Source: a virus (Duplodnaviria; Heunggongvirae; Uroviricota; Caudoviricetes). From it: 25,906 nucleotides of DNA. Of the stretch, positions 2,409 through 23,360 are shown one piece after another (within the stretch, counting starts at the first letter, position 1; each line of letters starts with the position of its first letter). Made by a program: the position numbers and the translations under genes. The notes beneath the pieces were generated by a model. It worked only from the letters and a program-made list of their open reading frames with translations, was not told the DNA's origin and searched no databases. The DNA lies in the IMG/VR virus record IMGVR_UViG_2740892258_000020; one strand, given 5' to 3'.

Positions 2409-2461
2409 GTTAAATCTCCAGATAGTCGCAGCACCCGTTGCGCCGCATATCTGGTTATTCT

Positions 2462-2483
2462 ATTACCTGGAAAACCACATATG
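2462..2483. promoter_or_regulatory. conserved 22-bp element ATTACC-N5-AACCACATATG, copy 1, upstream of the tailspike gene
   Basis: ATTACCTGGAAAACCACATATG here and ATTACCAATTTAACCACATATG at 22241..22262; both lie 30-75 bp upstream of a minus-strand late gene start. Confidence 0.45.
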
Positions 2484-2511
2484 GATAGAAAGGCTGTAAA
2501 TACGAATAGAT

Positions 2512-2527
2512 ATTACCTTTCAGGTAA
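2512..2527. promoter_or_regulatory. operator-like palindrome ATTACC-TTTCA-GGTAA, site 1, in the tailspike / 85-aa gene divergent region
   Basis: Inverted repeat TTACC-N5-GGTAA; one of five copies in the window, all intergenic. Confidence 0.55.
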
Positions 2528-2564
2528 TTTGCAAAACGTGCTGGATAGCAAACAAATTATTTGC

Positions 2565-2584
2565 TACTGTATAAATATACAGTT
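2565..2584 (+). promoter_or_regulatory. LexA (SOS) box immediately upstream of the 85-aa gene
   Basis: TACTGTATAAATATACAGTT matches the E. coli LexA consensus TACTGTATATATATACAGTA at 18 of 20 positions with the CTGT-N8-ACAG core intact; it ends 20 nt before the ATG and overlaps the likely -10 region. Confidence 0.7.
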
Positions 2585-2603
2585 ATTGCATGGAGAAGAT
2601 AAG

Positions 2604-2861
2604 ATGCAGCAGTATCACTATCCACTGGAAGACGGATTTACCGAAAGGATTCACACGCCGGGAGGCGTCAGGTCACTGGTGGAGGGATCGCACTTGATGA
2701 AATTACTCCGGGATCTCGATAAGGATGGATTTAATGTCGATGGCCCACTTGCCGAACTGACTGCACTGATTAACTACGTCACCAGCTCACAGATGTCTAT
2801 GCAGGATCTGCAAACACATCTCGACTATTGTGCCGAACAATTACGAAAACAAACCCGGTAA
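2604..2861 (+). CDS. small protein (85 aa) that is a standalone copy of the Bro-N antirepressor C-terminal domain; predicted SOS-inducible
   Basis: ATG at 2604 with GGAG 9 nt upstream (ORF-track start at 2481 is an unlikely extension). Residues ~15-75 (IHTPGGVRSLVEGSHLMKLLRDLDKDGFNVDGPLAELT...DLQTHLDY) align with the C-terminus of the 4247..4942 protein (IHSPSGVLGLTENSLLMNLLNQLQEDGHDVSGAAAELT...DIQTHAEY). Confidence 0.6.
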   Translation: MQQYHYPLEDGFTERIHTPGGVRSLVEGSHLMKLLRDLDKDGFNVDGPLAELTALINYVTSSQMSMQDLQTHLDYCAEQLRKQTR

Positions 2862-2868
2862 ATTTAAA

Positions 2869-2884
2869 GGCCGCAAGAGCGGCC
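2869..2884. terminator. shared hairpin GGCCGC-AAGA-GCGGCC between convergent genes; U-tract on the minus-strand side
   Basis: Perfect 6-bp GC stem directly after the stop of the minus-strand toxin-like gene and 8 nt after the stop of the 85-aa gene; followed on the minus strand by TTTAAATTT. Confidence 0.45.
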
Positions 2885-2885
2885 A

Positions 2886-3392
2886 TTAACAGTCGTAAAA
2901 TTCCGGGTCCCACAAACTTGCATCGCGCGGCATGGATTCTAAATTTTTCAGCCGCAAAATTCTGTCACACTCGACAAGAAGTTTTTGTTTTTGTTCGTCA
3001 ATTTCTACTTTTTTGTGTGCTGGCTCATCCCAGTAATCCAGAAGAAACGCATGTCGCTCAGACGTTACAAGATAAATCACATACACATCACTGGTTGGTA
3101 TTTTTTTATGCTTGTTGGTGGTCTTGTCTTTCTTCCCGGATGCCCAGTTTTTCCAGCATTGTTCCGTACCGCTCTCACCAAACTTGTCAGTATAGTTTCC
3201 GATGTTTACGTGAACGTGGCGTATGTGATATTCCAGCATCTCTTTCGGTGGATCCCGAAACAGAGTGTCCTTTCCGAAATCCTTATGATGACCGTAGCGC
3301 CAGTGATCTATGAACGCGTTTTTGATAGGTATTAGCTCAGGGTCCTTCCCAAAAATTCCAGGGTGAACCAACCCCTGGAATTTATTCAGCAT
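2886..3392 (-). CDS. YafO-family toxin-like protein (168 aa), probable mRNA-interferase type toxin
   Basis: Motifs resembling E. coli YafO as I recall it: PGIFGKD (YafO PDIFGRD), HVHVNIGNYTDKF (YafO IHLANENNPF), VYVIYLVTSERHAFLLDYWDEPAHKK (YafO HLVYCQGAFDEQAWLLIAILKPEPHK), plus a Lys-rich insertion. Start at ATG 3392..3390 with AGGAG 10 nt upstream; it overlaps the stop of the upstream gene by 11 nt. The ORF-track start at 3497 would give an implausible Arg/Ser/Cys-rich N-terminus. Confidence 0.5.
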   Translation of the reverse strand: MLNKFQGLVHPGIFGKDPELIPIKNAFIDHWRYGHHKDFGKDTLFRDPPKEMLEYHIRHVHVNIGNYTDKFGESGTEQCWKNWASGKKDKTTNKHKKIPTSDVYVIYLVTSERHAFLLDYWDEPAHKKVEIDEQKQKLLVECDRILRLKNLESMPRDASLWDPEFYDC

Positions 3393-3801
3393 CGTCGTAG
3401 AGCTCCTGAGCCATATCTTCGGCAGTGCGTGCAAACATCCTGCGCGAGATTGCATGAGATTTCTCGACGGACATCTTTGGGACCTCATGCATAACATTTT
3501 TGGGAGTTGTGTAATAGCCTATTACAATTTTCACACCTGACTTATGATTAATATCAGCATAATATACTTCTTGTTCAGACGTTTCACGACGAACATAATC
3601 TGCCAGTTTTCCACATTTAAATTCCCCTCCCTGATGTTTTAAAATCTCCTCAACTGCACTATTTTCAGTGAAATACCGAATAAGAAATTTCTGTCCAGAC
3701 TCTTCAGCATGAGGTATAACAGTATTATTGGAAGCCCGAACAATGGCCTTACTCAATATTTCATGGTCTTTATTTTTTTCTGATTTCCTCAAATGCTGCA
3801 T
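3382..3801 (-). CDS. unknown 139-aa protein translationally coupled to the toxin-like gene; candidate antitoxin or sensor partner
   Basis: ATG at 3801 with GAGAG upstream (ORF-track start at 3837 is TTG). Its stop lies inside the first codons of the downstream gene. Does not resemble YafN/Phd-type or RelB/RHH antitoxins that I can recognise. AT-rich. Confidence 0.6.
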   Translation of the reverse strand: MQHLRKSEKNKDHEILSKAIVRASNNTVIPHAEESGQKFLIRYFTENSAVEEILKHQGGEFKCGKLADYVRRETSEQEVYYADINHKSGVKIVIGYYTTPKNVMHEVPKMSVEKSHAISRRMFARTAEDMAQELYDDAE

Positions 3802-3933
3802 TACTGTAGCTCTCTTCGTGTTCACGGGCACCCCCAACTACCTCTAGGGTAAACATTCTATCGAAAGTATACGCATACTGGCAAAAAAATAGGCAGGTAT
3901 TTTCTGAAATGGGATCAATCAAACCACATAGGG

Positions 3934-3977
3934 TTGAAATAACGTGAGTTATGCATTTATTATTACCTTTGCGGTAA
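3934..3977 (+). promoter_or_regulatory. sigma70-like promoter (TTGAAA-17/18-TATTAT) overlapped at the -10/+1 region by operator palindrome site 2 (ATTACC-TTTGC-GGTAA, 3962..3977)
   Basis: Good -35 and -10 hexamers with correct spacing; palindrome begins inside the -10. Points toward the Bro-N gene. Confidence 0.5.
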
Positions 3978-4069
3978 ATTTACATCGCACTCCTCTTGTG
4001 CCATAGTAATCGGGCACTGGAAAAATCCAGTGCCGGGATTGGCGTCCCGGATTACTAAAAGGCGCATTC

Positions 4070-4090
4070 ACCGCGCAAGCGGTTTTTTTA
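4070..4090 (+). terminator. intrinsic terminator-like hairpin (CCGC-GCAA-GCGG with GNRA loop, then 7 T) inside the 5-prime leader of the Bro-N gene
   Basis: ACCGCGCAAGCGGTTTTTTTAT about 100 nt downstream of the promoter and about 155 nt upstream of the Bro-N ATG; preceded by two further stem-loops (4011..4036 and 4034..4050). Confidence 0.4.
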
Positions 4091-4246
4091 TGCGTATAGC
4101 ACGGCCACATTCGTATTATGGTGGGCTGTGTGGGGGCACCGAAAGGTGCGCCGGGTCCTTTTAGCCGGTTACGCCAACCCTGCACAGTTCACCACCAACC
4201 GATTGGCGTCGGTAGTGGTGATTAACCAGACTAAAAGGTAACCACT

Positions 4247-4942
4247 ATGACAGCTACAAAAAGCACGTCCATTTTTTCTTTCGAATCCCAAGCCGATATA
4301 CGGGTAATCGTCATTAATGGTGAGCCATGGTTTATCGCTTCAGATGTTTGTCGGGCTATAGGCATAGCAAATCATCGAGATGCTGTTCGAAAACTTGATG
4401 ATGATGAGAAGGGCGTCGCTTCAACCGACACCCCTGGCGGTGAGCAAGAATCGATCATCATCTCCGAGTCAGGCCTCTACACACTGATCCTCCGCTGCCG
4501 CGACGCAGTGACACCAGGCACTATCCCCTACCGCTTTCGTAAATGGGTTACAGGTGAGGTTCTTCCTCAGATCCGCCGCACCGGAAGTTACATTAAAAAC
4601 TCGCTCCCGCAGGAAGAACGCATAAAGATGGTTGCCGACCAGGTAGCCAACGCCACAGCATCAGCAGTGATGCAGGCAATGAAGATAGAGAACAAAACCT
4701 ACAGTGCCCCACTGAAGCCCGGCTACCGCAGCCTGATTCATTCGCCGTCTGGTGTTCTCGGCCTGACGGAGAACTCACTGCTGATGAATCTGCTGAACCA
4801 GTTACAGGAAGACGGGCACGACGTATCGGGCGCGGCGGCGGAGCTGACCACCATGTTCTGCTACATCGTCGGTGTGAGCAAGTGCCTGCGTGATATCCAG
4901 ACGCACGCGGAGTACATCAACGACAAGGCTGGGTTCTTCTGA
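4247..4942 (+). CDS. Bro-N domain phage antirepressor-like protein (231 aa) with a C-terminal domain shared with the 85-aa protein
   Basis: N-terminus FSFESQADIRVIVINGEPWFIASDVCRAIGIANHRDAVRKLDDDEK...ESGLYTLILRCRDAVTPGTIPYRFRKWVTGEVLPQIRRTG is the canonical Bro-N (phage antirepressor N-terminal) signature. Confidence 0.8.
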   Translation: MTATKSTSIFSFESQADIRVIVINGEPWFIASDVCRAIGIANHRDAVRKLDDDEKGVASTDTPGGEQESIIISESGLYTLILRCRDAVTPGTIPYRFRKWVTGEVLPQIRRTGSYIKNSLPQEERIKMVADQVANATASAVMQAMKIENKTYSAPLKPGYRSLIHSPSGVLGLTENSLLMNLLNQLQEDGHDVSGAAAELTTMFCYIVGVSKCLRDIQTHAEYINDKAGFF

Positions 4943-4979
4943 CGGGCGGCGGCACATGGATGTGCCTTTAAAATAATCA

Positions 4980-5023
4980 TTGGCGATGTGATGTAGATTC
5001 GCGTAATATTACCTTACGGGTAA
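4980..5023 (+). promoter_or_regulatory. sigma70-like promoter (TTGGCG-18-TAATAT) overlapped by operator palindrome site 3 (ATTACC-TTACG-GGTAA, 5008..5023)
   Basis: Same promoter/operator geometry as at 3934..3977; about 60 nt upstream of the 210-aa gene. Confidence 0.45.
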
Positions 5024-5082
5024 GAAAGCGTTTTTAATCTTCCCTTCAAAACGCGTCCTGTAGCCAAACATGGGAGGACGAA

Positions 5083-5715
5083 ATGAAAACAAATACAACA
5101 AGAAAAGCGATGCCATACATTATCCCAGAAGCAGATTTCGACAGAAAACTGAACATGTCTGAGAAGAACACTAGTCACACCGAAAGCTACTTAGCGAAAG
5201 GTGTGGTTGATTTCGTTCTTCCGGGATTCACAACACCTTATGGTTATCGCCTTGTAAAATCTTGTAATGGCGATCATTACAGAATGATTACTACCAGCGA
5301 TACTCCAGAAACGGTGTATGCGGTTAAGTTAATCTTTCGGGAAGATATCGTCGAAGCTAAAAGAACATGTACGCAGATCATGGTATGGCGTACGCCTAAT
5401 GTTATTCATGACCGTGCTGTTCATGGTTTGCCTCAGATTTTTTTTCAGTTCTTCCTAGAGCAATATGCGATCGTTGTATCTGATGAGCAACAAACAATCG
5501 ATGGGAGAAGATTCTGGGAAAGAATGATTTCTTGGGCTATAAACACCCCGGGATATAATGTATACGTTTCAGATGGCTCTGAAGAAGATAGACCTCTTAG
5601 CTTCATGACATCATGGGATGATTTCTATAGCCAGTGGGCTGATTTCTGTTGGGGCAGTGATAAAGATGTGCATACCCACAGACTACTGGTTATAAGCAAA
5701 GATAAACTGCATTAA
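5083..5715 (+). CDS. hypothetical cargo protein (210 aa), monocistronic
   Basis: ATG with GGGAGGA RBS 5 nt upstream; followed by a strong intrinsic terminator; AT-rich; no recognisable motif. Confidence 0.7.
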   Translation: MKTNTTRKAMPYIIPEADFDRKLNMSEKNTSHTESYLAKGVVDFVLPGFTTPYGYRLVKSCNGDHYRMITTSDTPETVYAVKLIFREDIVEAKRTCTQIMVWRTPNVIHDRAVHGLPQIFFQFFLEQYAIVVSDEQQTIDGRRFWERMISWAINTPGYNVYVSDGSEEDRPLSFMTSWDDFYSQWADFCWGSDKDVHTHRLLVISKDKLH

Positions 5716-5719
5716 TAGA

Positions 5720-5742
5720 AGCCCGCAGCGCGGGCTTTTTTG
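5720..5742 (+). terminator. rho-independent terminator AGCCCGC-AGC-GCGGGCT followed by TTTTTT
   Basis: Perfect 7-bp GC-rich stem and six T immediately after the stop of the 210-aa gene. Confidence 0.75.
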
Positions 5743-5813
5743 TGGACGAAACAAAAGTCAGTGCTACACTCATTGACGCCACATTGAGGTGGCTTATAGA
5801 TGGAAATTTCACA

Positions 5814-5975
5814 ATGAAAAAAGCATTTGCTGCACTGTTCGTTTTGTTGTCTCTGGTAGCTTCAACTCAGGCCTTTGCCGGTCGTTGTCAGCACGACAGC
5901 GATACTGCTGCTGACGGCTCCCGCTGCGGTGGGCGTTCTGCGGATTCCCGCCCGGGTGGCGGTGGCATTCGTTAA
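5814..5975 (+). CDS. possible small secreted peptide (53 aa): Sec-type signal peptide then a Gly/Asp/Arg-rich 31-aa mature region with two Cys
   Basis: MKKAFAALFVLLSLVASTQAFA|GRCQHDSDTAADGSRCGGRSADSRPGGGGIR. Upstream TTGACG-16-TATAGA promoter-like hexamers; weak or no SD. Bracketed by terminators at 5720..5742 and 5981..5998. Confidence 0.35.
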   Translation: MKKAFAALFVLLSLVASTQAFAGRCQHDSDTAADGSRCGGRSADSRPGGGGIR

Positions 5976-5980
5976 AAACA

Positions 5981-5998
5981 AGGCCGCGAAAGCGGCCT
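5981..5998. terminator. bidirectional hairpin AGGCCGC-GAAA-GCGGCCT; T-run on the minus-strand side terminates the 283-aa gene
   Basis: 7-bp stem with GAAA loop; on the minus strand followed by TGTTTTTAAC. Confidence 0.65.
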
Positions 5999-6004
5999 GT
6001 TTGA

Positions 6005-6856
6005 TCACTGTGCAGTTTTCGCTGATCGATTTTCAGCTCTAAATTCAAGAACCGTTTCAATATTTCTTTCCTTCAGCATATCAATAACATTTTTATTCAT
6101 TTGACTATCACTGGTTAATAACTGGTAAACGTTGCTTCTCTCTTTATCAGAGTTTTCTTTAACAGCTGCTTTGCATGCCAAATGCTTATTGAAATTTTCT
6201 ACATCGCTAGTACAGGAATTTACGGCTGCTGATGAAATATCAGACGCTGAAGAAACACCATCATCCAAACGTTTTATAGCATTTTCTATACATGAGTTAA
6301 GGGAATAAACGACAACTGAGCGATACCCTTCAGACGCACACCATTCTAAATTTCTTGAAGGATCGAGTGGTTTTACTTCGCTGGATTGAATTAACTTGTC
6401 AAAAACTGACTTATATTCAATCTGTTTTTTATCTATAGCCCATACTTCAGTAGCTGATTTATAATTCCCCGTATGCCTATTAACATCAAATCCATGTTTT
6501 ATAAGCAAATCTGCCCATGAAAGATTTATTGATTCATTGTTATGAGGCCATTTTCCTGTCAGAACCGCCCCCATAGACCCCATATATCCGCCATATGATG
6601 GTATAGCACCATGGCTCAGTAACTTCTCAGCAACCACAGGGCAATTAATTACATAAGAGGCGTAAAGCCCATTCCATAAAGCCCCTCTATAGTAATCGCC
6701 ACGATTAGGTTCTTTTAAGTCGATAGCCTTTGATAATTGTTCACACGTTTTGCATGCATCAAAGTTATCCTTATTGCATTGCAATGAACTGGCAGCTGTA
6801 GGATTTACAGAGACTATTGAAAGCACTATGCCAAAAAACAAATTTATTTTTTTCAT
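6005..6856 (-). CDS. secreted/periplasmic cargo protein (283 aa) with N-terminal signal peptide, many Cys, and possible ankyrin-like repeat motifs
   Basis: MKKINLFFGIVLSIVSVNPTAASS signal-like N-terminus; motifs PVVAEKLLSHGAIP and ADLLIKHGFDVNRHTG resemble ankyrin repeat consensus (tentative). AT-rich; ATG 1 nt after the stop of the upstream ejection-protein gene. Confidence 0.7.
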   Translation of the reverse strand: MKKINLFFGIVLSIVSVNPTAASSLQCNKDNFDACKTCEQLSKAIDLKEPNRGDYYRGALWNGLYASYVINCPVVAEKLLSHGAIPSYGGYMGSMGAVLTGKWPHNNESINLSWADLLIKHGFDVNRHTGNYKSATEVWAIDKKQIEYKSVFDKLIQSSEVKPLDPSRNLEWCASEGYRSVVVYSLNSCIENAIKRLDDGVSSASDISSAAVNSCTSDVENFNKHLACKAAVKENSDKERSNVYQLLTSDSQMNKNVIDMLKERNIETVLEFRAENRSAKTAQ

Positions 6857-6857
6857 C

Positions 6858-9800
6858 CTATTTCATCTGCTCTTCAACTTTATTTAGTAACGGTGATATT
6901 GCCCACAGGTTCTGAAAAGGTAGCATTTTACGGACCGCGTGGGTTTGCTGGCTGTCAAATTCTCCGTTAAGTACACCATTCGCAACCGTCGCGGCATCAC
7001 CGCCAAGATCAAAGGTAGGACCAAGTAAAGCACCAATAGCATTACGACTCTGAAACCTTGATACCGGAGGCGCACCAAACATCGCGCCAAGACCAAACCT
7101 ACCGCCGCTTATGTTCTCAACGGTATTCAGCGGCTCAGAGAGCCAGCCAAGCATTCCGCCCCGGTCGATCCCCTCTTTCACAAGGTTATTCCAGCTGTAG
7201 TCAATATCGCGACCGCTTAACTTCTGTTTCATCATATAGACCATTGAGCCAAGCGCAATCGTGCCAAGCGCACCAAGATAGAATGCAGCATCGCCCTGCT
7301 GGATACCAGATACCAGCACCCTGTTATGCTGTGCGAAGATAAACGTTTTGAACTGCGTGATCATCTTCCAGCCTTCTTTACTAAAAAACAGCGGTGTATC
7401 ACCTACGCCAGGCGTTACAATCACTGAGTCTACATCTTTCAGCACTGCAGACTGGAAAATCTCTCTAGCGAAACGGTCATCCCACAGATGACTATGCCCG
7501 GTTAACAGCCCGTCCATATCCTCTCCGTGCTTCCCGAATTGCTCCCCGATTCGGCGCAGAACATCTTCATTGATGCCGACCTGTGCCATCTTCCGCATTT
7601 CACTTTTGGAGAGCGTGCCACCAGCAGAAACTTGGCGAGCCGCGTCAAGTATCCTCGACTGCACTATCATCCCGGACCATGATTTAAGTGCGCTGTTCCA
7701 CTGATTCATCAGCGTCCAGTTACCGAATTTCTGCGTCATCCAGTTCAGGCCTCGCTCAGCGGCGCTTCTCCGGCTATATGGGTCAGTAAGATCCGCTATA
7801 GCCTTTGTACGCGTAGACAGGACATAATCAAGCCCAACGGCCATTTCTCGCAAATCCCTGGTTGCAATTTTCACTGAGTCCATATTTTTAAGCATGCTTA
7901 CCATTGGTCCGAGAGATTTTCTCAGGCCATGCTGCATCATCGGTCGCATCAGATCAGTTGCAGCGGAGACAGTCATTCCACCAAGCAAACGGAGGAAGTT
8001 AATATTCCTAGCAACTCGCCCGGCACGAACAAAGAAACTGCGTGGATCTTGAGGTGCACCGTAAGTACCAAGCAGTCGATCACGCATAGCCGTAATATCC
8101 CTAATATCAGCCTCCCGTTGCTTCTCAAGAACTGCACGTCGTTTAGGCGTTTTAGCCTCTTTTATTAGCCGGGTATATTCCTCACTAACCTGACGGATTT
8201 GCTCCCCCATATCTTTACGGCCAAACTGCGCAGTCAGCTCAATTTCTGGTGCCACCTGCCGGAGATAACTTTCCATGATGTAGTTAACATCTGATTCAAG
8301 AAAATCTTCTATACGCTCATCAGGAATAAGCAGCGTTCTGCTTTTAGTGAAACCAGCCCGACCAACGAGTCTCTCTGGGATAATATCGGCTGGTACAAGC
8401 CCGGAAGGTGCACCTATTATTTTATTCACGATCTCGTCAGCAGCGTCCTCTGCTTCCTCTCGGGATAGAGGCTCCATCTGCTTCAGTGCTCGTTCGCGGC
8501 TTGCATTCAGCCTTGTGGTTGAATTTGCCCGTTTTTGCAGTCGGCGAAGCTCAGAACGATATTTCCGTGGATTATCCAGCAACTCCATATGGCGCTGATA
8601 GACAGGAAGCTCACTCTTTGCCTGCGCTATATCATCAAGGCGTGTTTTAAGGTCAGAGCTTTCTTTCATCATTCTTGCCTGAAGTTTTTCTGATGAAGTC
8701 TCGGCCAACTCTTTTTCTATTCTTGTAAGACGCGCCTGTGTGTCAGTCTCCTGAGATATAAGCTTATTTCGTTTATCCAGTTCTTCCATGAGTAGAATTT
8801 TTTTACCAGACCATTTCTCCGCTTCAGCGATTTCACTAGCGAGAGCATCAGCGCGCGGTGCCGATTCCTCTGCAGTTTTTAGCAATGAATTTATCCTTTC
8901 AATTCGCTGACCTGCCTTGTCAGCACCTTTGGCACTAATCCCTTGTATCCAGTTGGCAATTCGCCCTCTGAATTCAGTGCGGTCGGAAAGTATCTTATCG
9001 AACTTATAAATGCGGGGAAGATAACTTTTCGCCGTCACGACATCGATATCCTCAGGAAGGATCCCCAGTTCCTGCATACGGGCTTTTGTGGTCTCGAAAA
9101 TGGGGCGGATTCTGGCAGCTGCTTGTGAAACCTCAGGAATATCACTCTGATCACCACGGCGCATAGCCATGCCAACAGCTTCATTGAAATCAATAAAGTT
9201 CATCCTCTTCACGCCGCGGGCGCTAACAGATTTGCTGTACTGCTGGTAAGCATCACGAGTGGCTTCCATCTGCTTATAAAGCATGGCGTCGTATTGCTTA
9301 ATCTTAGTCTCGACTGCCGTAAACGTAGCCAACCCCTCATCATTTTTGGCGAAGAAATAGTTATTTTCGGCAAGCTGCTGGTTAATCTGACGGGAGACAA
9401 GAGATGGTGATTGCGCCAAGCGGCCAGCAGGAGTGACACTCAACGTTTTGTTAGCAAGTCCAAGTCCAGCGAGCTGTTCCTGATCGAGTGTGGTATTGAA
9501 AACCTGAGCTGCACCAATGCTTTGAGGAGAATCCATACCTCGCAAATGATTACCTACTGAGTTAACCACTGCCTCGCGCGCGCCAGGTCCAGCAAGTAGC
9601 TGTGCACCAGCACCAAGGATCCCACCAACGAGAGCATCAACAACAACGTTCGATACGCTCTCCATCGGTGAGCGAGCTTCCTGAGTGGCCTGTAATGCGG
9701 CCTCTGAAGCAACACTGCCAGCAGCATTCGCCAGGGCAAAACGCCCGGCTGTTTCTGCAATACGACCGCCACGAACGACAGCGCCGAACGGAATAAACAT

Positions 9801-10247
9801 AGAAATCGCATTGAATGGATCTGCTAATCTCATTGCTACAGAAGAGACTGTACCAGCAAATCCCAAGCCTGAATTGTATTCCATGTCAGCTCTCTGCTGA
9901 TCGATTCGATGTTTAATTGCCATTGTTTCTTCAGGCGAACCGGAGTTGATAAACGAATCTGCAAAATCTTCATAGCCTTTAATATCTGCTGCATCGTTAT
10001 CAAATGGGTTATATCCTTCAACCCTGTCAAACTGACTGAAAGGAGCACTGGCAATAAAGCTACCCAGCGTGTTATCTATACGAAATGCTGCTTGTCTAGA
10101 CCTTTGAACGCGTTGATCACTGGTAAATGGGTTCACAGCAGAAAGCAAAGAAGGTGTTTCCATATAGAAATTACTGTCATCAGGTGCTGCTATTTGCTGA
10201 ATATCCTCGCCAAGCAACTCTTTAGGATCCTGTTCATATATCGGCAT
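6858..10247 (-). CDS. large internal virion / DNA ejection protein (1129 aa), T7 gp16-position analogue
   Basis: Last and largest gene of the tube/core gene run; long coiled-coil-like central region (KTAEESAPRADALASEIAEAEK...); start overlaps the upstream gene stop. Assignment by position and size. Confidence 0.55.
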   Translation of the reverse strand: MPIYEQDPKELLGEDIQQIAAPDDSNFYMETPSLLSAVNPFTSDQRVQRSRQAAFRIDNTLGSFIASAPFSQFDRVEGYNPFDNDAADIKGYEDFADSFINSGSPEETMAIKHRIDQQRADMEYNSGLGFAGTVSSVAMRLADPFNAISMFIPFGAVVRGGRIAETAGRFALANAAGSVASEAALQATQEARSPMESVSNVVVDALVGGILGAGAQLLAGPGAREAVVNSVGNHLRGMDSPQSIGAAQVFNTTLDQEQLAGLGLANKTLSVTPAGRLAQSPSLVSRQINQQLAENNYFFAKNDEGLATFTAVETKIKQYDAMLYKQMEATRDAYQQYSKSVSARGVKRMNFIDFNEAVGMAMRRGDQSDIPEVSQAAARIRPIFETTKARMQELGILPEDIDVVTAKSYLPRIYKFDKILSDRTEFRGRIANWIQGISAKGADKAGQRIERINSLLKTAEESAPRADALASEIAEAEKWSGKKILLMEELDKRNKLISQETDTQARLTRIEKELAETSSEKLQARMMKESSDLKTRLDDIAQAKSELPVYQRHMELLDNPRKYRSELRRLQKRANSTTRLNASRERALKQMEPLSREEAEDAADEIVNKIIGAPSGLVPADIIPERLVGRAGFTKSRTLLIPDERIEDFLESDVNYIMESYLRQVAPEIELTAQFGRKDMGEQIRQVSEEYTRLIKEAKTPKRRAVLEKQREADIRDITAMRDRLLGTYGAPQDPRSFFVRAGRVARNINFLRLLGGMTVSAATDLMRPMMQHGLRKSLGPMVSMLKNMDSVKIATRDLREMAVGLDYVLSTRTKAIADLTDPYSRRSAAERGLNWMTQKFGNWTLMNQWNSALKSWSGMIVQSRILDAARQVSAGGTLSKSEMRKMAQVGINEDVLRRIGEQFGKHGEDMDGLLTGHSHLWDDRFAREIFQSAVLKDVDSVIVTPGVGDTPLFFSKEGWKMITQFKTFIFAQHNRVLVSGIQQGDAAFYLGALGTIALGSMVYMMKQKLSGRDIDYSWNNLVKEGIDRGGMLGWLSEPLNTVENISGGRFGLGAMFGAPPVSRFQSRNAIGALLGPTFDLGGDAATVANGVLNGEFDSQQTHAVRKMLPFQNLWAISPLLNKVEEQMK

Positions 10248-13572: not shown

Positions 13573-14036
13573 TATTTTCTCTCCATGTGAAATCTGTGGA
13601 AATTAAGACCAATAGCACCATAAGGCGCGGCTTCTTCAAGCCTGAATCCAAGCCAGTGCAGCCATGCTTTGGCAACATGGTTTCGCTCGTCGACGTAGTT
13701 TTCCAGGCGCGGATAAACTGCCAGCATCTGCTGCAATACAGGGCGGCAGTGGCGCAGAAATGTCTTCTGATATTTTTCAATACGGCTGGTCCCGACCAGC
13801 CAGGGCGTACCATTGCCACCGATCATTGACGCCGGAGATACGCCAAACATGGTTACCAGTTCTCCGTTCGCGAACCCTGACCAGGCCATAGTCGCAGTAC
13901 GCAGACCAACACGCAGCGCATCTTCGGTAGTCATCAGTGATACCGCATACAGTTCGTCAATATCAGCCTGACGAACATCCGGCAAAATCATCTGAAGATG
14001 CTCTTCGGTTGCGGGAATAATTTGAACATCGATCAT
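13572..14036 (-). CDS. small virion-associated protein (154 aa), T7 gp13-position analogue
   Basis: Position between the tail-tubular-B-like and gp14-like genes with 1-nt overlaps on both sides; no motif confidently recognised. Confidence 0.35.
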   Translation of the reverse strand: MIDVQIIPATEEHLQMILPDVRQADIDELYAVSLMTTEDALRVGLRTATMAWSGFANGELVTMFGVSPASMIGGNGTPWLVGTSRIEKYQKTFLRHCRPVLQQMLAVYPRLENYVDERNHVAKAWLHWLGFRLEEAAPYGAIGLNFHRFHMERK

Positions 14037-16507: not shown

Positions 16508-17115
16508 CAGGACAACCTCGCAATGGTAAACTCATCAACCGGTGGCTGTGGTTCCTGTGATTCATTCTGGCTATGCGAGCCAGCACTAAGAATCACGCGA
16601 TTGTACATATTGAGGGCAAACGTACCGAGGTCTGCATTCCCAGTCAGCGCCATGTTAATAGCTGCCGCAAGACGCCAGGCCAACGCCTCCATAAAAATGG
16701 CATCAAACATGTTCACATCTGTAACGCGAGAGACATACTTGAGCCATGCCTGAGGCTGGTCTGTGTAGATCAACTTTCCTGTTCCGTTGGTGTCTGCACC
16801 AACTTCGTACTGAACGCGCATTGCTGCTGTTGGATTGCGTACACCAGGAAGCATAATTTCAGTAATGCGCAGACAATCTGACGGGTACTGGTACGCATAT
16901 TCCCAGTCAGGCGGTGGATTGCTCGTATCTGCAAGCGCCACGCGTTTGGTAGCAAAGTTCCAGTCAAAATCAGAAAGCACAGCATCACGACAGGCCTCAA
17001 AGTGCAGCGAACATTCCCCCGCTTCCTTGCTGGCTTCCGTCAGGCTGTTAATGCTGCGGCTGTTGCCAATATTGGACAGCGCACGATTACAGATCTCTAC
17101 TACAGAGGCCATCAC
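16507..17115 (-). CDS. tail tubular protein A-like (adaptor) protein (202 aa)
   Basis: Size and position match T7 gp11 (196 aa), immediately upstream of the gp12-like gene with overlapping stop/start. Confidence 0.45.
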   Translation of the reverse strand: MMASVVEICNRALSNIGNSRSINSLTEASKEAGECSLHFEACRDAVLSDFDWNFATKRVALADTSNPPPDWEYAYQYPSDCLRITEIMLPGVRNPTAAMRVQYEVGADTNGTGKLIYTDQPQAWLKYVSRVTDVNMFDAIFMEALAWRLAAAINMALTGNADLGTFALNMYNRVILSAGSHSQNESQEPQPPVDEFTIARLS

Positions 17116-17441
17116 TCACCTCCGTTACCGTACAGAGTTTCAGCCGCTGATTTTTCTACATCCCCGGAAACAGGAGCGATCGCCATATCAGTGATCTGCA
17201 GATCGGCGCTGCGATTAACGCCATCGTTAGTTTCTCTGGCAGACAGGCCTCGAATAACAGCCTTTGCAGTTATCATCACTTCCGTTCCGACGCCCTTAGG
17301 TTGCGCCTTCAGCTTATTCAATGTGTCGTTATTAAGAGTGATGCACAGCCCCCACGGGTATTCATCGCGAGTTCTGGTTTCTCCGCTCTCATCCTGGTAG
17401 CTGTCAGTGCCGGTTTTGAGGTTTACGAGTTCCATATACAC
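17112..17441 (-). CDS. hypothetical virion-module protein (109 aa)
   Basis: Compact ORF in the late operon; 4-nt overlap with the downstream gene. Confidence 0.5.
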   Translation of the reverse strand: MYMELVNLKTGTDSYQDESGETRTRDEYPWGLCITLNNDTLNKLKAQPKGVGTEVMITAKAVIRGLSARETNDGVNRSADLQITDMAIAPVSGDVEKSAAETLYGNGGE

Positions 17442-17485
17442 TCCTGCAATAAAGGGGCCGAAGCCCCTTGTCTGATCCGCGAGGC

Positions 17486-17830
17486 TTACACGCCCAGTTC
17501 TTTACGCTTATCTGCGATCTTCTCGCGGAGCGTTTCGGCTTTGGCGTTATGGTGTGGCTTCTCGTTAAAGAGCAATTCGTACTCTTCACGGAGCTTATCC
17601 AGTTCACCATCATCTGACACATCGTTGATGATTTTGGTGCTGGTTGCTGCCATAGACACCTTTCCTGCTACCTTTGCTTTTGCCTGTCTGGCTGCATCGT
17701 TAACAGGTTCCAGTGCGCTACCAGGCTCACCTTCGTATTCGATTTCTGCCCCCTCCGGCCACAGAGTGTTATGGATATGAGAGAGGCGCAGAACGCGGTA
17801 TCTTGGTTTCTCACCTGACATCGATATCAC
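17486..17830 (-). CDS. hypothetical virion-module protein (114 aa)
   Basis: ORF in the late operon between capsid-associated and tail genes; followed by a UUCG-loop hairpin (17452..17467). Confidence 0.5.
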   Translation of the reverse strand: MISMSGEKPRYRVLRLSHIHNTLWPEGAEIEYEGEPGSALEPVNDAARQAKAKVAGKVSMAATSTKIINDVSDDGELDKLREEYELLFNEKPHHNAKAETLREKIADKRKELGV

Positions 17831-17831
17831 C

Positions 17832-18269
17832 TTAACCAGTTACTTTTGAGAGGATCGGATACGGCGTATTGGCATCAACATCAAGACTGATACCAGCAGT
17901 GAATTCGCCAGCCGTTAGTGGGCCAGTTGCGACGGAGTAGTTAACACGCAGATATCGCTGAACACCGGCAGGCACCTTTGCAGAAACAACTCGTTTACCT
18001 GCTGTCAGGGCGGTCTTTGCCAGTGCGCCACTATCATAAATAGTGGTCCATGAGCTGTTATTCTCACTCGTCTGCAACTGGATGTTTACAGTTGCATCAC
18101 CGCTTGCCGCGGCGGCTGTGTTAACCAGCGCCCAAAACTCAAGCGGGTAACCCACGCCGATATCACGACGTTTTCCGTCAATTGGACCGAGATCGATTAC
18201 GTCAGTAGAAGCCGCGGTATTCGTAACCGCCTGAGCTTCGGAGAACATCAACAGTTTGTCGGTGATCAT
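17832..18269 (-). CDS. capsid-associated protein (145 aa), possibly decoration or head-completion
   Basis: Directly follows the major capsid gene; Thr/Ala/Gly-rich, beta-rich composition. Function by position only. Confidence 0.45.
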   Translation of the reverse strand: MITDKLLMFSEAQAVTNTAASTDVIDLGPIDGKRRDIGVGYPLEFWALVNTAAAASGDATVNIQLQTSENNSSWTTIYDSGALAKTALTAGKRVVSAKVPAGVQRYLRVNYSVATGPLTAGEFTAGISLDVDANTPYPILSKVTG

Positions 18270-18320
18270 CTTCTTTCTCCATTAGTGGGTCTGTTACGAC
18301 CCACAGGTTAATAACAGGCG

Positions 18321-19313
18321 TTACACCACGCGGGCTTCTGTTTCCAGAAGCGCATCAGTTTCACGGATTGGTACACCACGGAATGAAGTCCACCACTCGC
18401 CTTCTGTCTCTTTTACGCTGATCGCCAGAGATGTTTTCTCCAGAGATTGCAGATCAAGAGCCTGGCCTACAGTGCGGTTCATGTAGAACACCGGGCGACC
18501 CATGCCACGATTTGGAATGCGATGCAGTGCTTTAACCATCAACTTCGCAATATTTGCGGCAGAGGAAGGTTCTGAAAGATTGCTGACATCGATGTTTGCA
18601 ATGCGAACAACATAACGCCAGTCACGCAGAGCAAGTCCGTTGTCCCATTTGTAATGGGTACGGTAGCCTTCGTACTTGCCGCCATTAGCATCTTCCAGTG
18701 TCACCTGGCCTTTATCTTCCATCTGAATGCCAGCCTTCTGCCCTTTCGGGAAGATGCCATGCACTGTGTTTTCGCCCCACACCACTAACCAGATTGAGGT
18801 GTTATCTGTACCCGTGCCACCAGCATCAATGATGTTCTGAGCATTACCTGCAGACAGGCTGGAATAGCGGGAGGACAGTCCCATAAACTGCTGAGGGTTA
18901 ACGCTGGAATCACCATAAAACAGCGTCTGCGCCATCTGCTGATTCATCGCTTCAATAAATGCGCGGTCTTCAGACAGGCGGAATTCGGCGGTATTACCGT
19001 TCAGATCAGCCAGTGACTTATCGACTTCAGCATAGGTTTCCAGCATTCCAACGGAATCGGTGACCTGCACTGTGGTTGATTTGCTTGGCTGTACGCCATA
19101 GTTCAGCAAACGCCAGGTGGCTGAAGGTAAACCAGAACGAATGGTGGTTCGGTGTCCGGTAGGAAGGTTCCCTTCGACAAAAGGCATATCCTGAAGGATC
19201 GGGTTAGTTTGACCGAGAAGCTCGATAATCTTATCGACTTTCCCGTTTTTATCGACGCGCTTACCCCAGTCAGCCAGCGTTAGCGCAGTTAAGCCTTTAA
19301 CAGCCATTGTCAT
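18321..19313 (-). CDS. major capsid protein (330 aa)
   Basis: Position immediately after the scaffold-like gene and size typical of HK97-fold capsid proteins; GC and codon usage match the structural operon. Confidence 0.6.
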   Translation of the reverse strand: MTMAVKGLTALTLADWGKRVDKNGKVDKIIELLGQTNPILQDMPFVEGNLPTGHRTTIRSGLPSATWRLLNYGVQPSKSTTVQVTDSVGMLETYAEVDKSLADLNGNTAEFRLSEDRAFIEAMNQQMAQTLFYGDSSVNPQQFMGLSSRYSSLSAGNAQNIIDAGGTGTDNTSIWLVVWGENTVHGIFPKGQKAGIQMEDKGQVTLEDANGGKYEGYRTHYKWDNGLALRDWRYVVRIANIDVSNLSEPSSAANIAKLMVKALHRIPNRGMGRPVFYMNRTVGQALDLQSLEKTSLAISVKETEGEWWTSFRGVPIRETDALLETEARVV

Positions 19314-19321
19314 TTCCTCTC

Positions 19322-20023
19322 TTATTTGCCATAGAGCACTTCGGCCGCACTACGCTGGCCTTCATTACCACCGGTGACCATGCCATCTTCAGACATCGCC
19401 TTTCCGATTTTCACGAACGTTTTGACCAGATCAGGGTGATTACCCAGCCCGGTGGTGTTCAGATATTCTTTGAGTTCAGGTGTCCCGAACTGGTCAAGCG
19501 CACGCTGTGCGGCGCTAAGGTTAGAAATCAACTTGTCGCCACCGATTTCTTTGTCAGCTTTTACATCCGCAGCCCACTGCTCGGTTGTTTTCTGCCAGGC
19601 TTCTGCCTGGCGCTGCTGAACACCTGCCAGAATCTTCGGATAAGCATCAACCAGCTTTTGCGCTTGCTCGTTGGTCAGGTTAAGTTCTCGCGCCACCGGC
19701 TCGAATTCCTTCAACGCTTCTGTATCCAGCTCTACGCCTTCGGCAGCCTGAAACTCGTACTTCTCAGGCGCACCCTCTGGTTTATCGCCGTCCTTTTTTT
19801 CATCCTGCTTATCGTTTTCAGGCTTTTTGTCATCAGCAGGTTTATCGCCATCAGCAACAGGTTGTGGCTTATCACCTTCCTGTTGTGATGGATCACCAAC
19901 TGGAGCAGGGTTATCACCTGCAGGCGCTGACGGTTCTGACGCAGCCGGAGCTGCTCCACCATCGACTGGTTGCTCATTGCAAAGACGGCTATACAGCAAA
20001 CGCTCAAATAAATTCATGATCAC
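19322..20023 (-). CDS. scaffolding protein (233 aa)
   Basis: Highly acidic, Pro/Asp/Lys-rich N-terminal half and predicted-helical C-terminal half; lies between portal and capsid genes; 4-nt overlap with the upstream gene. Confidence 0.6.
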   Translation of the reverse strand: MIMNLFERLLYSRLCNEQPVDGGAAPAASEPSAPAGDNPAPVGDPSQQEGDKPQPVADGDKPADDKKPENDKQDEKKDGDKPEGAPEKYEFQAAEGVELDTEALKEFEPVARELNLTNEQAQKLVDAYPKILAGVQQRQAEAWQKTTEQWAADVKADKEIGGDKLISNLSAAQRALDQFGTPELKEYLNTTGLGNHPDLVKTFVKIGKAMSEDGMVTGGNEGQRSAAEVLYGK

Positions 20024-20316
20024 TCCTGTTCACTGGCCTCTTTGGCCATCTTCAAATACTGTTCAGGACAATGCGCCATAACGCGCTGAAACAGTTCCAG
20101 CGCCAGATTGCGTTGCCCCTCATTAAATGCCATTGCCATAGCGTCCATCGGTGAGATAGCGGAAAACACACGGCCTTTCTCCAGCACCGACCAGACAACG
20201 CGACGCCCCTGTTCACTGCTCATGACAAAGCGAATGTCATCAATTTCACGCTGTGCCATGTCACGTTGCTTACGGGCGTTTTCTTCTTTCAGTTGATCGT
20301 CTTCGTAATCTGTCAT
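20020..20316 (-). CDS. small acidic protein (98 aa) between portal and scaffold
   Basis: ORF with ATGA-type overlaps to the portal stop and the scaffold start; function unknown. Confidence 0.5.
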   Translation of the reverse strand: MTDYEDDQLKEENARKQRDMAQREIDDIRFVMSSEQGRRVVWSVLEKGRVFSAISPMDAMAMAFNEGQRNLALELFQRVMAHCPEQYLKMAKEASEQE

Positions 20317-21992
20317 TGTGATTGCCCACCCTGACCACTAACTGCATTCGCCATAGCTGACAAAACACTCGGATCCGAAGTTTTAGCTTCGCTTAGCGTC
20401 TTGGCACCCTGTGCCGCCGCCATCCCCATCGCCATCATTTGTTGCTGCTGTTGCTGCTGTGCCCGTTGCTGGCGAGCCTGCTCAACCTGTTCCTGCGGAA
20501 CAATGACGGTTGGAGACACTCCGGACATATCAGCGAATGCATCGATCGCCTGATCAACGTTGAGTTTGTCGAGAGCTTCTGGTTTCGCTTGCGCAAGTTG
20601 ACCAATGAAGTTAACCGTGGACGCCAGACTGGACAGGCCGATAGACTTCTGCGCCTGAGCCATGACGGAAATGTATTCGACCTTCAGGGGCATACCTTCC
20701 ATCACGTCTGGCGGTGGCGGCAGCATGTTTTTACGCACCATCATCGAGAAAGAGCGGTCAATGAGAGGATTAAGACATTCGTCGTTCAGACGCTCCAGAA
20801 CCGGCCCCAACATCAGAAGTTTTTCTTCTTTCATTTCGATCACCGCTTCAACAGGCATCGAGCGGGTATTGATGTTCTGCAACATCATGAACAGATCGAC
20901 AAAGTAGGCGCTGTTAATGATTTGACGAGTGTCCTGAATGTCTGCCACCAAATCTGCTGTACTGGGGTTAACCAGATAAGCAGGCCTGAAACCATCCTGA
21001 CCAGTAATCTGATCGATATACGTGATGTCGCCAGGAAGAAGGGAGGCACGCTGATTCTTGAGGGAAGTCGGAGCAACCATCGGCGGATTGGTGGCTTTAT
21101 CAATCAACTGCGACTTGCGCTTCTGGAGAAGCTGCAATGCCTTAACAGGTCCAAGCGCCAGCATACCCGGGCATGATGATCCATAAACATCTTCGCCGTT
21201 AACTTCCCAGCGCGGAGCCATAATTGGAAACTCATCGAATCCGGACTCACGCAACAACTTGTCGTTATCGCCACCAACCTCGTAATAAACCGATTTGAAT
21301 GGCTTGTTCTTGCTATCCAGCTTCGATGTATCGCGGTCAATGTTCGGGTAAACCGAATGCATCACTTCAATCCACTTCTCGTAGGTGCCGCTTTCCCACA
21401 TGCTTTTTACGGATTCGCTGACGTTATTTAGCCCGAACTCCTGAACAAGCTGACGAACAGTCATAGAGAACTTGCGAAAACAGGTGTCCACACTGCCACG
21501 AGGTGAGTTAGCCAGGTAGTAACTGCCTATCGGGAATGGCATTGTGCGAATGATGTCCTCGTCATCCTCCAGCACCGCCATTGCACCAGTGCTGTATGTG
21601 CCGAGGCTTCCGTATAACTGCGGAAGAGACTGGTAGAGATTCGACTTATTGAACATATCGTTCATGCGGTTCTGCACCGCCTCGAGCCACAACTTAACAG
21701 GACCATAATCCATCATTTCAGGATCTGGCGTAGCCAGGCGAAACCACGGACGCGCAGGGCTTGTGATGCCTGACATCATGCCGCTGGCGAGAGTGCGCGC
21801 CGCCATAGTCCCGGTCGAATCAATAATGCGTGTATTGCGTCGATCGTTACGGTTGACTTCAGAAGTCAGAAAGCGGGAACCACGCGGGTTGATGTAATCA
21901 CTCAACTCGCGCCAGTGCGGCTCGAACGACTGACGCTCGCTTTCAAGTTGTGCGAACTGTTTGTTCAATCGCTCTTTAGTTGTTTCCGCCAT
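20313..21992 (-). CDS. portal (head-to-tail connector) protein, T7 gp8-like (559 aa)
   Basis: Size close to T7 gp8; C-terminal region (EQARQQRAQQQQQQQMMAMGMAAAQGA) strongly resembles the T7 gp8 C-terminus (EEQKQQKMAQQSMQMGMDNGAAALAQGMAAQA) as I recall it. GGAG RBS. Confidence 0.8.
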   Translation of the reverse strand: MAETTKERLNKQFAQLESERQSFEPHWRELSDYINPRGSRFLTSEVNRNDRRNTRIIDSTGTMAARTLASGMMSGITSPARPWFRLATPDPEMMDYGPVKLWLEAVQNRMNDMFNKSNLYQSLPQLYGSLGTYSTGAMAVLEDDEDIIRTMPFPIGSYYLANSPRGSVDTCFRKFSMTVRQLVQEFGLNNVSESVKSMWESGTYEKWIEVMHSVYPNIDRDTSKLDSKNKPFKSVYYEVGGDNDKLLRESGFDEFPIMAPRWEVNGEDVYGSSCPGMLALGPVKALQLLQKRKSQLIDKATNPPMVAPTSLKNQRASLLPGDITYIDQITGQDGFRPAYLVNPSTADLVADIQDTRQIINSAYFVDLFMMLQNINTRSMPVEAVIEMKEEKLLMLGPVLERLNDECLNPLIDRSFSMMVRKNMLPPPPDVMEGMPLKVEYISVMAQAQKSIGLSSLASTVNFIGQLAQAKPEALDKLNVDQAIDAFADMSGVSPTVIVPQEQVEQARQQRAQQQQQQQMMAMGMAAAQGAKTLSEAKTSDPSVLSAMANAVSGQGGQSQ

Positions 21993-22006
21993 TTCAATGA
22001 CTCCGG

Positions 22007-22213
22007 TTACTGACCAAGCAGCGTTTTACCGCTGGTATTAGCGGTTGATGTGTCGCCCTGAGAACCGGTAAGCAGCGTAGAACTACGACCAGCAGCAGCG
22101 CGACGGCGACGTGTTTCTTCGTCGCGGGCATCAACAACGGCGGCATCCTGCTCCTGTGGTGCTGCCTGAACTTCTGGTGTTGCAGGCACTGATGGTGAGC
22201 TACCCATGCACAT
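22007..22213 (-). CDS. small low-complexity protein (68 aa) immediately upstream of portal
   Basis: ATG preceded by CGGAGTCATTGAT, nearly the same translation-initiation context as portal (CGGAGTCATTGAA); Ala/Pro/Gln/Arg-rich; coding status uncertain. Confidence 0.4.
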   Translation of the reverse strand: MCMGSSPSVPATPEVQAAPQEQDAAVVDARDEETRRRRAAAGRSSTLLTGSQGDTSTANTSGKTLLGQ

Positions 22214-22240
22214 ATCAATGACTCCGTACGCAATTAAATT

Positions 22241-22262
22241 ATTACCAATTTAACCACATATG
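22241..22262. promoter_or_regulatory. conserved 22-bp element ATTACC-N5-AACCACATATG, copy 2, upstream of the portal operon
   Basis: ATTACCAATTTAACCACATATG; see copy 1 at 2462..2483. Confidence 0.45.
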
Positions 22263-22281
22263 ATTTATTTATCGTAGAAGG

Positions 22282-22318
22282 TTGACATTTAACGCGTTAA
22301 TTATTACCTTTCAGGTAA
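22282..22318 (+). promoter_or_regulatory. TTGACA -35-like hexamer followed by operator palindrome site 4 (ATTACC-TTTCA-GGTAA, 22303..22318); possible plus-strand promoter for the tRNA/moron unit
   Basis: Consensus TTGACA at 22282..22287 with the palindrome centred where a -10 would be; the -10 match itself is poor. Confidence 0.4.
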
Positions 22319-22650
22319 CCAAAGGGCTCATTCTGGTTACTAACCTGACTGGCTTGTCGTTAAATTAAACAGGTGGAGTGAGCTTTTATTTTGAGCAGTA
22401 CGGCGTATGGCACATGCGCCGATAGCGGTCTGGATACGTTTAAGGGGCACCCTCCCTTGCTCGGGCAAACGAACCAGGTAGCCGGAATGTGCAAGTCGAG
22501 CGGTTTTATTCCGCGCACGGGGATTCACCATCCCGGCGATTCGGTGTGACGCCTCGGAAGAGACGAGGGTACAACGATGAGAGCATTTATGGAGCCGCGA
22601 CAAAGTGTGGCGCCTTAACAGGCTAAGTGCTCTCAGCGTTGTGGCATTAG

Positions 22651-22727: not shown

Positions 22728-22760
22728 TAAGGACCGTGATGCCAGAAGTTCCAGGTGCTT

Positions 22761-23338: not shown

Positions 23339-23360
23339 CGCCGTGACATGTCACAATCAG

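Follow-up and report, generated by a model that had tools for sequence, protein, structure and literature searches.

A 14-bp box joined to an operator half-site upstream of two late transcription units in an epsilon15/phiV10-type prophage: candidate Rep-clamped promoters

Phage late and middle promoters that lack a −35 hexamer and carry an activator box are known from several systems, among them P1 Lpa, T4 MotA (box at about −30), Mu C/Mor and P2 Ogr. Auxiliary operators and DNA looping are known from lambda CI at OL-OR and from lac O1/O3, gal and deo. In prophages of the epsilon15/phiV10 type, the lysis-lysogeny switch (Rep, Ant, LexA) has been studied structurally, and the Rep/Ant system was reportedly described by Kim & Ryu in 2013 and by Kim et al. 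in 2016. No account of late-gene silencing and timing in this prophage type was found in the accessible literature. Described here is a 22-bp element found twice in IMG/VR record IMGVR_UViG_2740892258_000020 (25,906 nucleotides; this whole stretch is termed the window), once upstream of the tailspike gene and once upstream of the gp3-like gene that precedes the portal gene. The element consists of a box, then 5 bp, then GGTAAT(A), a half-site of the Rep operator. Tentatively, and with slightly more doubt than belief, the 22-mer is interpreted as the core of two Rep-clamped late promoters without a −35, the box being read by a putative dimeric factor.

The likeness to P1 Lpa- and T4 MotA-type promoters lies in a −10-like hexamer, the lack of a −35 and a partly palindromic box 7–10 nt upstream, at three late units. 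The box sequence is unrelated to the MotA box and to the P2 motif, however, and the box is not restricted to the late class but is also found at early promoters, inside the spacer. No homologue of the Lpa, MotA, C/Mor or Ogr activators turned up in the window, where no search specific for them was made. As in the looping systems, a strong and a weak site lie on the same helix face, the repressor is tetrameric and the promoter would be enclosed or covered by a bridging repressor; the distances here are very short (20–62 bp), and the weak site is of another sequence class. Judged by its sequence, the element belongs to neither the −35-less activator class nor the looping class. It can also be compared with the Rep operators of epsilon15 and SPC32H: it has an exact operator half with the operator's flanks, it lies at a fixed, helically phased distance from a full operator and it is found in the same Rep-controlled regions. 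Unlike them it is not palindromic, and its box has a conserved centre, N6 spacing and a T as the fourth base of the half-site.

The operator, Rep, Ant and LexA control are already known. What appears undescribed is the 14-bp box, the way it is paired with a half-operator at late promoters and the helical register that it keeps with operators. The box is unannotated in the records inspected and undescribed in the accessible literature, a body that does not include the primary epsilon15 and SPC32H papers; full-text searches returned nothing relevant on Uetakevirus late promoters or operator half-sites. The ZX5 paper presents four promoters predicted by software and does not mention the element. 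The prophage type is common; besides E. coli, it is found in Salmonella, Klebsiella, Enterobacter, Citrobacter and Pantoea. A 22-bp module with testable parts would offer a direct handle on late-gene silencing and timing, of use in the design of phiV10-based reporter phages and in predicting prophage induction.

Two copies of the element and their conservation

The element copies and the features that surround them are as follows.

2462..2483, minus strand: copy 1, tailspike side, ATTACCTGGAAAACCACATATG; transcribed strand CATATGTGGTT-TTCCA-GGTAAT
22241..22262, minus strand: copy 2, gp3/portal side, ATTACCAATTTAACCACATATG; transcribed strand CATATGTGGTT-AAATT-GGTAAT
2462..2467, minus strand: Rep operator half-site GGTAAT of the tailspike copy
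2512..2528: full Rep operator ATTACCTTTCAGGTAAT, in the ant-tailspike intergenic region
22303..22319: full Rep operator ATTACCTTTCAGGTAAC, gp3 side
1509..2408, minus strand: N-terminal part of the tailspike gene, 299 codons, truncated relative to ZX5 and IHE3034
22007..22213, minus strand: gp3-like small gene, first of the head/tail operon
20313..21992, minus strand: portal gene, next after gp3
2604..2861, plus strand: ant, a small antirepressor gene, homologue of SPC32H_020 and epsilon15 gp19
2567..2582, plus strand: LexA box CTGTATAAATATACAG, a perfect match before ant, marking a divergent SOS-controlled antirepressor promoter

A preliminary description of this DNA had reported that the two 22-mers match at 17 of 22 positions with the 5-nt spacer alone differing, and its exact coordinates are reproduced. 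The transcribed-strand reading that it gave, CATATGTGGTT-N5-GGTAAT, holds for both copies. So do the distances: the near end of the tailspike copy is 54 nt from the ATG at 2408 and that of the gp3 copy is 28 nt from the ATG at 22213, and the far ends lie 28 nt from the palindrome at 2512–2528 and 40 nt from that at 22303–22319. The 22-mer itself stands, but the functional unit runs 3 nt past the end assigned to it, as the boxes occupy 2473–2486 and 22252–22265. A second correction is that the tailspike open reading frame (ORF) in the window is truncated at codon 299.

When the whole window is searched with ATTACC-N5-AACCACATATG, allowing up to 3 mismatches, the two known sites are returned against 0.07 expected, and there is no third copy of the full element. 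As the pattern was taken from these very sites, the chance estimate is partly circular. The case for significance therefore rests on conservation, which by comparison of the sequences is stronger evidence for the element than the chance estimate.

The preliminary description had proposed a motif search in related prophages upstream of the tailspike and portal genes, and the element is found to be kept at both. In all 10 phage genomes compared, among them those of phiV10, epsilon15, SPC32H, Tyrion, BUCT554 and four Klebsiella phages, the gp3 and tailspike starts are preceded at a fixed offset by CATATGTGGTT-N5-GGTAAT or something very similar. The core of the gp3 copy begins 49 nt before the gp3 ATG, and that of the tailspike copy begins 75–77 nt before the tailspike ATG in the five genomes measured. 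MAFFT alignment places the gp3 copy in a 27-nt block, TAT[G/A]TGGTTAAATTGGTAATAATTTAA, which is invariant over the 10 genomes while its flanks vary, and gives AT.CATAT..GGTT.....GGTAATA.A.T as the conserved pattern of the tailspike copy. In three Klebsiella phages, the blastn match covers this non-coding stretch only and not the gp3 coding sequence.

Beyond this set, the gp3 copy is present in 12 of 16 prophages of other species, taken from Genome Taxonomy Database (GTDB) species genomes. Eleven Enterobacteriaceae prophages, including one Klebsiella and one Candidatus Erwinia contig, display the order operator, 40 nt, core, 5 nt, GGTAAT; a Pantoea prophage keeps this arrangement with a spacer of 7 nt. 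It is not cleanly retained in relatives from Proteus, Providencia and Morganella. Among the IMG/VR loci obtained with the portal query, the exact 22-mer is found in 67 of 80 and single or double substitutions in the other 13; as these 80 loci are 99–100% identical in the portal gene, they are informative for within-population variation only. Of 5426 complete E. coli genomes, 517 contain the gp3 control region. Portal relatives at greater distance (45% identity or less) were set aside as too remote for regulatory comparison. The notion that the half-site covaries with immunity type in Morganellaceae was dropped, as those phages too use ACC-N5-GGT operators.

A further sequence related to the core is found at 2446–2456 on the plus strand. 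This is CATATCTGGTT, an inverted copy matching at 10 of 11 positions and located downstream of the putative −10. The window and phiV10 share this copy, which epsilon15 lacks. It makes up the 5′ arm of a hairpin predicted in the tailspike leader (z = −2.67), which extends over part of the Shine-Dalgarno sequence.

The operator half-site and the 14-bp box

The palindrome that the preliminary description had called a full operator is ATTACC-N5-GGTAAT, the Rep repressor site of the epsilon15 GenBank record. There (AY150271) it is annotated nine times as a "repressor" protein_bind feature, including sites before terS, gp3 and tailspike. With up to 2 mismatches, the window has 8 such sites against 0.71 expected; together, the annotation and the enrichment identify the palindrome as the known Rep operator. 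One paper, citing Kim et al. 2016, describes Rep as binding DNA in the form of a tetramer, with domain pairs from different dimers, and as being dismantled by Ant (PMC9638917).

The suggestion that the element is a composite site sharing an operator half was correct, because the element contains that half with the operator's own flanking bases. On the tailspike side, ATTACCTGGAA (half-site plus spacer, 2462–2472) is 91% complementary to the operator arm at 2518–2528, ATTACCTGAAA. On the gp3 side, AATTATTACC is found both at 22237–22246 and at 22299–22308, such that the half-site carries the flanks of the operator. The element is not a full Rep operator: the opposite half, GTGGTT, matches ATTACC at 1 of 6 positions, and the operator search of the window (up to 2 mismatches) returns neither 22-bp copy. 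When the sequences are aligned on the half-site, GTGGTT, the right arm of the box, stands where an operator would have its second half; box and operator part thus overlap physically. The gp3 copy can also be written as a hybrid operator.

22241..22257: "hybrid operator" 17-mer ATTACC-AATTT-AACCAC with a single consensus half, centre 22249

From this centre to that of the full operator (22311) is 62 bp, which is the operator-to-operator spacing at PL and at the p45 promoter in relatives.

A scan of the 10 genomes shows that the conserved 11-mer belongs to a 14-bp near-palindrome, of which it makes up the right-hand part; the consensus is approximately AWCCATATRTGGTT. The window has three boxes.

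2473..2486: tailspike box, AACCACATATGGAT on the plus strand and ATCCATATGTGGTT on the minus strand; centre 40.5 bp from the centre of operator 2512–2528
22252..22265: gp3 box, AACCACATATGATT on the plus strand and AATCATATGTGGTT on the minus strand; centre 52.5 bp from the centre of operator 22303–22319
3922..3935: third box, AACCACATAGGGTT, upstream of the isrK/C4/Bro region; centre 41.5 bp from operator 3962–3978

A perfect box, AACCATATATGGTT, precedes the lysis cassette of phiV10 and Tyrion. Every one of the 27 boxes with 2 or fewer mismatches has an operator less than 60 bp away, where about 4% would be expected from the area covered; as the genomes are related, these 27 amount to approximately six independent site classes. 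Centre-to-centre distances from box to operator are listed by class.

Boxes adjacent to the operator: 19.5 bp
Tailspike: 40.5 bp
Bro region: 41.5 bp
p45: 42.5 bp
Lysis cassette: 43.5 bp
gp3: 52.5 bp

Each of the six distances is strictly conserved within its class and deviates by no more than 0.15 turn from a whole number at 10.5 bp per turn, the distances amounting to about 2, 4 and 5 helical turns. Judged by these positions, the box is tied to Rep operators and not to late genes. No box was found in the rep-cro switch region. Patterns for the DnaA box, CRP, sigma-54, sigma-28 and sigma-E were compared with the box by eye and rejected.

Promoter anatomy and competing explanations

Ahead of the tailspike gene lies ant, which is divergent; ahead of gp3 lie a tRNA-Arg(TCT) gene on the opposite strand (22641–22717), a p03-like gene and the terminator hairpin that follows terL. 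The gp3 Shine-Dalgarno sequence lies about 20 nt downstream of GGTAAT, so that any gp3 promoter must include the element. No sigma-70 consensus (−35 and −10 hexamers 16–18 nt apart, at least 9 of 12 matches) is found in 2380–2640 or in 22180–22660 on either strand. In both copies, GGTAAT is followed or overlapped by candidate −10 hexamers that have A as their second and T as their sixth base.

2457..2462, minus strand: TAGAAT, best tailspike −10 candidate, in 9 of 10 genomes; BUCT554 has TAAACT
2460..2465, minus strand: TAATAG, alternative tailspike −10 register
22236..22243, minus strand: gp3 −10 candidates AATAAT (22238–22243) and TAATTT (22236–22241), within the invariant 27-nt block

The box ends 7 nt before TAATAA at gp3, TAATAG at tailspike and TATAAT or TATGAT at the lysis cassette of five relatives; with TAATTT (gp3) and TAGAAT (tailspike) taken as the −10 instead, the gap is 10 nt. 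It thus spans about −36 to −23 if the −10 is TAGAAT/TAATTT, or −33 to −20 in the other register. Of the earlier proposal of a late promoter recognised by a phage activator or sigma factor, the promoter part is supported, in that the element is at the required position, is the most conserved non-coding block and has no −35. The remainder is not: the box is not late-specific, there is no phage sigma factor among the proteins scanned and no activator can be assigned.

Under the favoured explanation, the late promoters would receive two inputs, the upstream 14-bp box in place of a −35 and the downstream GGTAAT(A) half-site over the −10. In the lysogen, one pair of DNA-binding domains of a Rep tetramer would grip the strong operator upstream, and the other pair the weak promoter-proximal site (half-site plus edge of the box), covering the promoter. 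Upon induction, LexA-controlled Ant would strip Rep from the DNA. The −35-less promoters could then fire with the dimeric box-binding factor replacing −35 recognition, and the same factor might dampen early promoters that have a box in the −35/−10 spacer. The anatomy, the conservation and the helical phasing are observed; we infer the bridging by Rep and the activation by a box factor.

The box-binding factor is more likely phage-encoded than a host protein. A protein at the usual late-regulator position is p55, termed "transcriptional regulator" in PHROGs and RefSeq, with homologues in N15 and in Yersinia and Vibrio phages. It has no Pfam match and no match in the Protein Data Bank (PDB) by sequence or profile. 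A weak NCBIfam match to YbfE (E = 0.05) and a predicted secondary structure consisting of an unstructured stretch followed by two helices hint at a ribbon-helix-helix fold, but the AlphaFold model of p55 is poor (pLDDT 60). p55 is 51–58% identical in Morganellaceae prophages without the gp3 box; this persistence argues against p55 as the box binder and for a factor that varies with the immunity region. Together with the poor model and the lack of a PDB match, it leaves p55 a doubtful candidate for the box factor. Rep (phiV10 Rep, L005 32087–32671) displays two helix-turn-helix (HTH)-like regions, YdaS-like at residues 21–61 and HTH_3 at 106–147. In an alignment, the second recognition helix, Q-x-T-x-x-R, is well conserved, even in the Morganellaceae homologues. 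The HTH_3 region falls in the domain reportedly crystallised as the tetramerisation and Ant-binding domain. A third protein, p41, is cro-like (phrog_35).

Several observations weigh against the favoured explanation. Late units are not the only sites of the box: it is present at early or middle promoters (those of p42 and p45, and PL of Tyrion and BUCT554) and ahead of the bro/isrK operator. At p42, it lies past the terminator between the cro-like p41 and p42 and overlaps a conserved TTGATC −35; at p45/RuvC, and likewise at PL of these two phages, it occupies the 17 nt between the hexamers of good −35/−10 pairs. Its position with respect to the −10 varies, from about −19.5 through −26.5/−29.5 to −40.5, and it is far upstream at bro/isrK; with such variation, a repressive or architectural role fits at least as well as that of an activator. 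The operator-to-hybrid distance at tailspike is 50 bp, which is not a whole number of helical turns, and the lysis-cassette copy lacks the GGTAAT half-site. The promoter status of the elements is inferred from position, and computation assigns none of p55, Rep and p41 to the box.

An alternative is that there is no activator and the whole 22-mer is a weak, non-canonical secondary operator, an explanation that is possible but doubtful. A Rep tetramer, or a co-repressor, would then span 2, 4 or 5 turns and cover the promoter, and the late promoters would be plain weak sigma-70 promoters. The pairing of every box with an operator at near-whole turns, whatever the position of the promoter, is consistent with this, as is the box in the spacer of good −35/−10 pairs at p45 and at PL of Tyrion and BUCT554; the variable box-to-promoter geometry is more simply accounted for. 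The AACC/GGTT of the box resembles the ACC/GGT that is invariant in the operator, with a spacing of N6 where the operator has N5, and relatives from Proteus and Morganella have GGTT in N5-type operators. That Rep has two HTH-like regions (21–61 and 106–147) points the same way. So does the loss of the gp3 box in two of three Morganellaceae genera, with a loose version in Proteus; Rep there is 33–36% identical. However, the box centre CATATRNG is conserved, whereas true operators have a free N5 centre, and half-site position 4 is always T in the box but A or G in the Enterobacteriaceae operators listed, the exceptions being GGTTAT and GGTTAC at two terS-proximal operators. Moreover, the rep-cro switch region has no box, and without an activator the lysis and structural genes would be on at once upon infection, with no late timing.

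A related proposal, which we consider unlikely, is that the box represents an operator of a second class that acts obligatorily together with the Rep operator and is read by the C-terminal HTH_3 of Rep or by a small phage protein docked beside Rep. If true, one short element would silence the late promoters in the lysogen and replace the −35 after antirepression, a compact alternative to the antiterminator and activator cascades of other temperate phages.

It is improbable that the box is a host architectural site or a bendable segment that aids a short Rep loop. Its centre is rich in TA and CA/TG (CATATATG), boxes are helically phased with operators and conserved over several host genera, and the epsilon15 record predicts sites for integration host factor (IHF) beside two such operators. 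Those predicted sites, however, fall between operator and box and not on the box, and no match to WATCAR-N4-TTR with up to 1 mismatch overlaps 2473–2486 or 22252–22265, so that an IHF site at the boxes was rejected; matches across the window are at chance level (50 versus 41.8 expected). A conserved 14-bp dyad with an invariant GGTT suggests base-specific recognition beyond bendability.

Still less probable is that the similarity stems from the 5′ leaders of the two late mRNAs acting as RNA, by structure, processing or translation control, and not from a DNA site. Around GGTAAT, TTAAATT of the gp3 copy can pair with AATTTAA, and the tailspike leader folds better than shuffled controls (z = −2.67). 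The gp3 fold is no better than shuffles (z = −0.94), however, and the significant tailspike hairpin lies downstream of the element; in the alignment fold of the tailspike leader, whose 5′ arm is partly outside the alignment, there is no covariation. Neither copy has an Rfam match, the matches in the window (a tRNA, isrK and C4) all being elsewhere, and the box is found in both orientations and at untranscribed positions. Lastly, a functionless repeat arising from common descent or gene conversion between intergenic regions is scarcely credible, as offset and sequence are conserved across genera while flanks diverge, and further copies stand at other regulatory regions with quantised operator spacing, against which may be set only that the window has two copies and that the chance test is circular.

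Other features of the prophage

The window is, on nucleotide identity, an epsilon15/phiV10-type (Uetakevirus) prophage, in an orientation that is the reverse of the phiV10 map. Both element regions are 93–99.8% identical to those of the phiV10-group Escherichia phages (ZX5, PAS61, phiV10) and about 76–85% identical to those of Tyrion, epsilon15 and SPN1S/SPC32H, all of the genus Uetakevirus. The head/tail operon extends from gp3 (22007–22213) and portal down to about 6005, and terL and terS are also in the window. Two further features were located.

25568..25906, minus strand: p55/gp49-like protein of 112 amino acids (phrog_536, "transcriptional regulator"), last early-right gene
22282..22310, plus strand: putative divergent sigma-70-like promoter TTGACA-N17-TACCTT, its −10 inside operator 22303–22319

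This predicted promoter aims at tRNA-Arg and the phiV10p03-like gene, and the pattern TTGAC(A/C)-N17-TACC(T/A)T is read in the window, in epsilon15, in one Klebsiella phage and in Proteus. The tRNA-Arg(TCT) gene (22641–22717, plus strand) overlaps the ORF equivalent to PhiV10p04 (22647–22898, minus strand), and because of this overlap the ORF may be spurious.

Homology to ZX5 and IHE3034 stops at about 1556, and the tailspike ORF ends after 299 codons. The left end of the window (1–1556) carries genes of conjugative-plasmid type (LPD29 and DUF1380 domains) that are 100% identical to many plasmids. With homology ending and plasmid-type genes beginning there, the prophage appears truncated or chimeric at this end; it is without the receptor-binding part of the tailspike and without a lysis cassette. 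In the relatives, the lysis-operon leader (L005 24770–24815; also L004, L006 and L007; outside the window) is almost invariant. It contains a short upstream ORF (ATGCACAGTAAACGGTGG..., 6–12 codons) with its own AAGGGGG Shine-Dalgarno sequence, which ends at, or overlaps, the start of the first lysis gene.

Relative to ZX5, the window has a 1.1-kb insertion between ant and the bro region (2862–3956). Its minus-strand ORFs encode a YafO-family type II toxin and a hypothetical partner, according to the RefSeq annotation of E. coli IHE3034. The insertion has its own TTGCCA-N17-TAGAAT promoter and an operator-like site at 3837–3853. Beyond it, Rfam identifies an isrK Hfq-binding RNA at 4014–4089 (plus strand, 76.7 bits) and a C4 antisense RNA at 4114–4199 (plus strand, 77.7 bits), both directly upstream of a Bro-N antirepressor gene (4247–4942) and preceded by operator 3962–3978 and box 3922–3935. 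By its composition, isrK/C4/Bro is a P1/P7-like, RNA-controlled second antirepressor module.

The 230-amino-acid terS ORF (start 25546, minus strand) would enclose a rho-independent terminator hairpin and two Rep operators (25449–25483) within the region 25445–25546. The true terS start is probably the in-frame ATG at 25450 or 25447, directly after the operators, as in epsilon15. A perfect 12-bp palindrome, GTGACATGTCAC, is found twice in the window (23343–23354 and 25560–25571) against 0.00 expected, one copy just past the terL terminator hairpin and the other sharing bases with the stop codon of the p55-like gene. Its conservation in relatives is 100% at operon 3′ ends, where it follows gp49/p55 and terL and stands beside the terminator that closes the structural operon. 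Even the prophages of Proteus, Providencia and Morganella, in which the remaining regulatory motifs have diverged, keep it.

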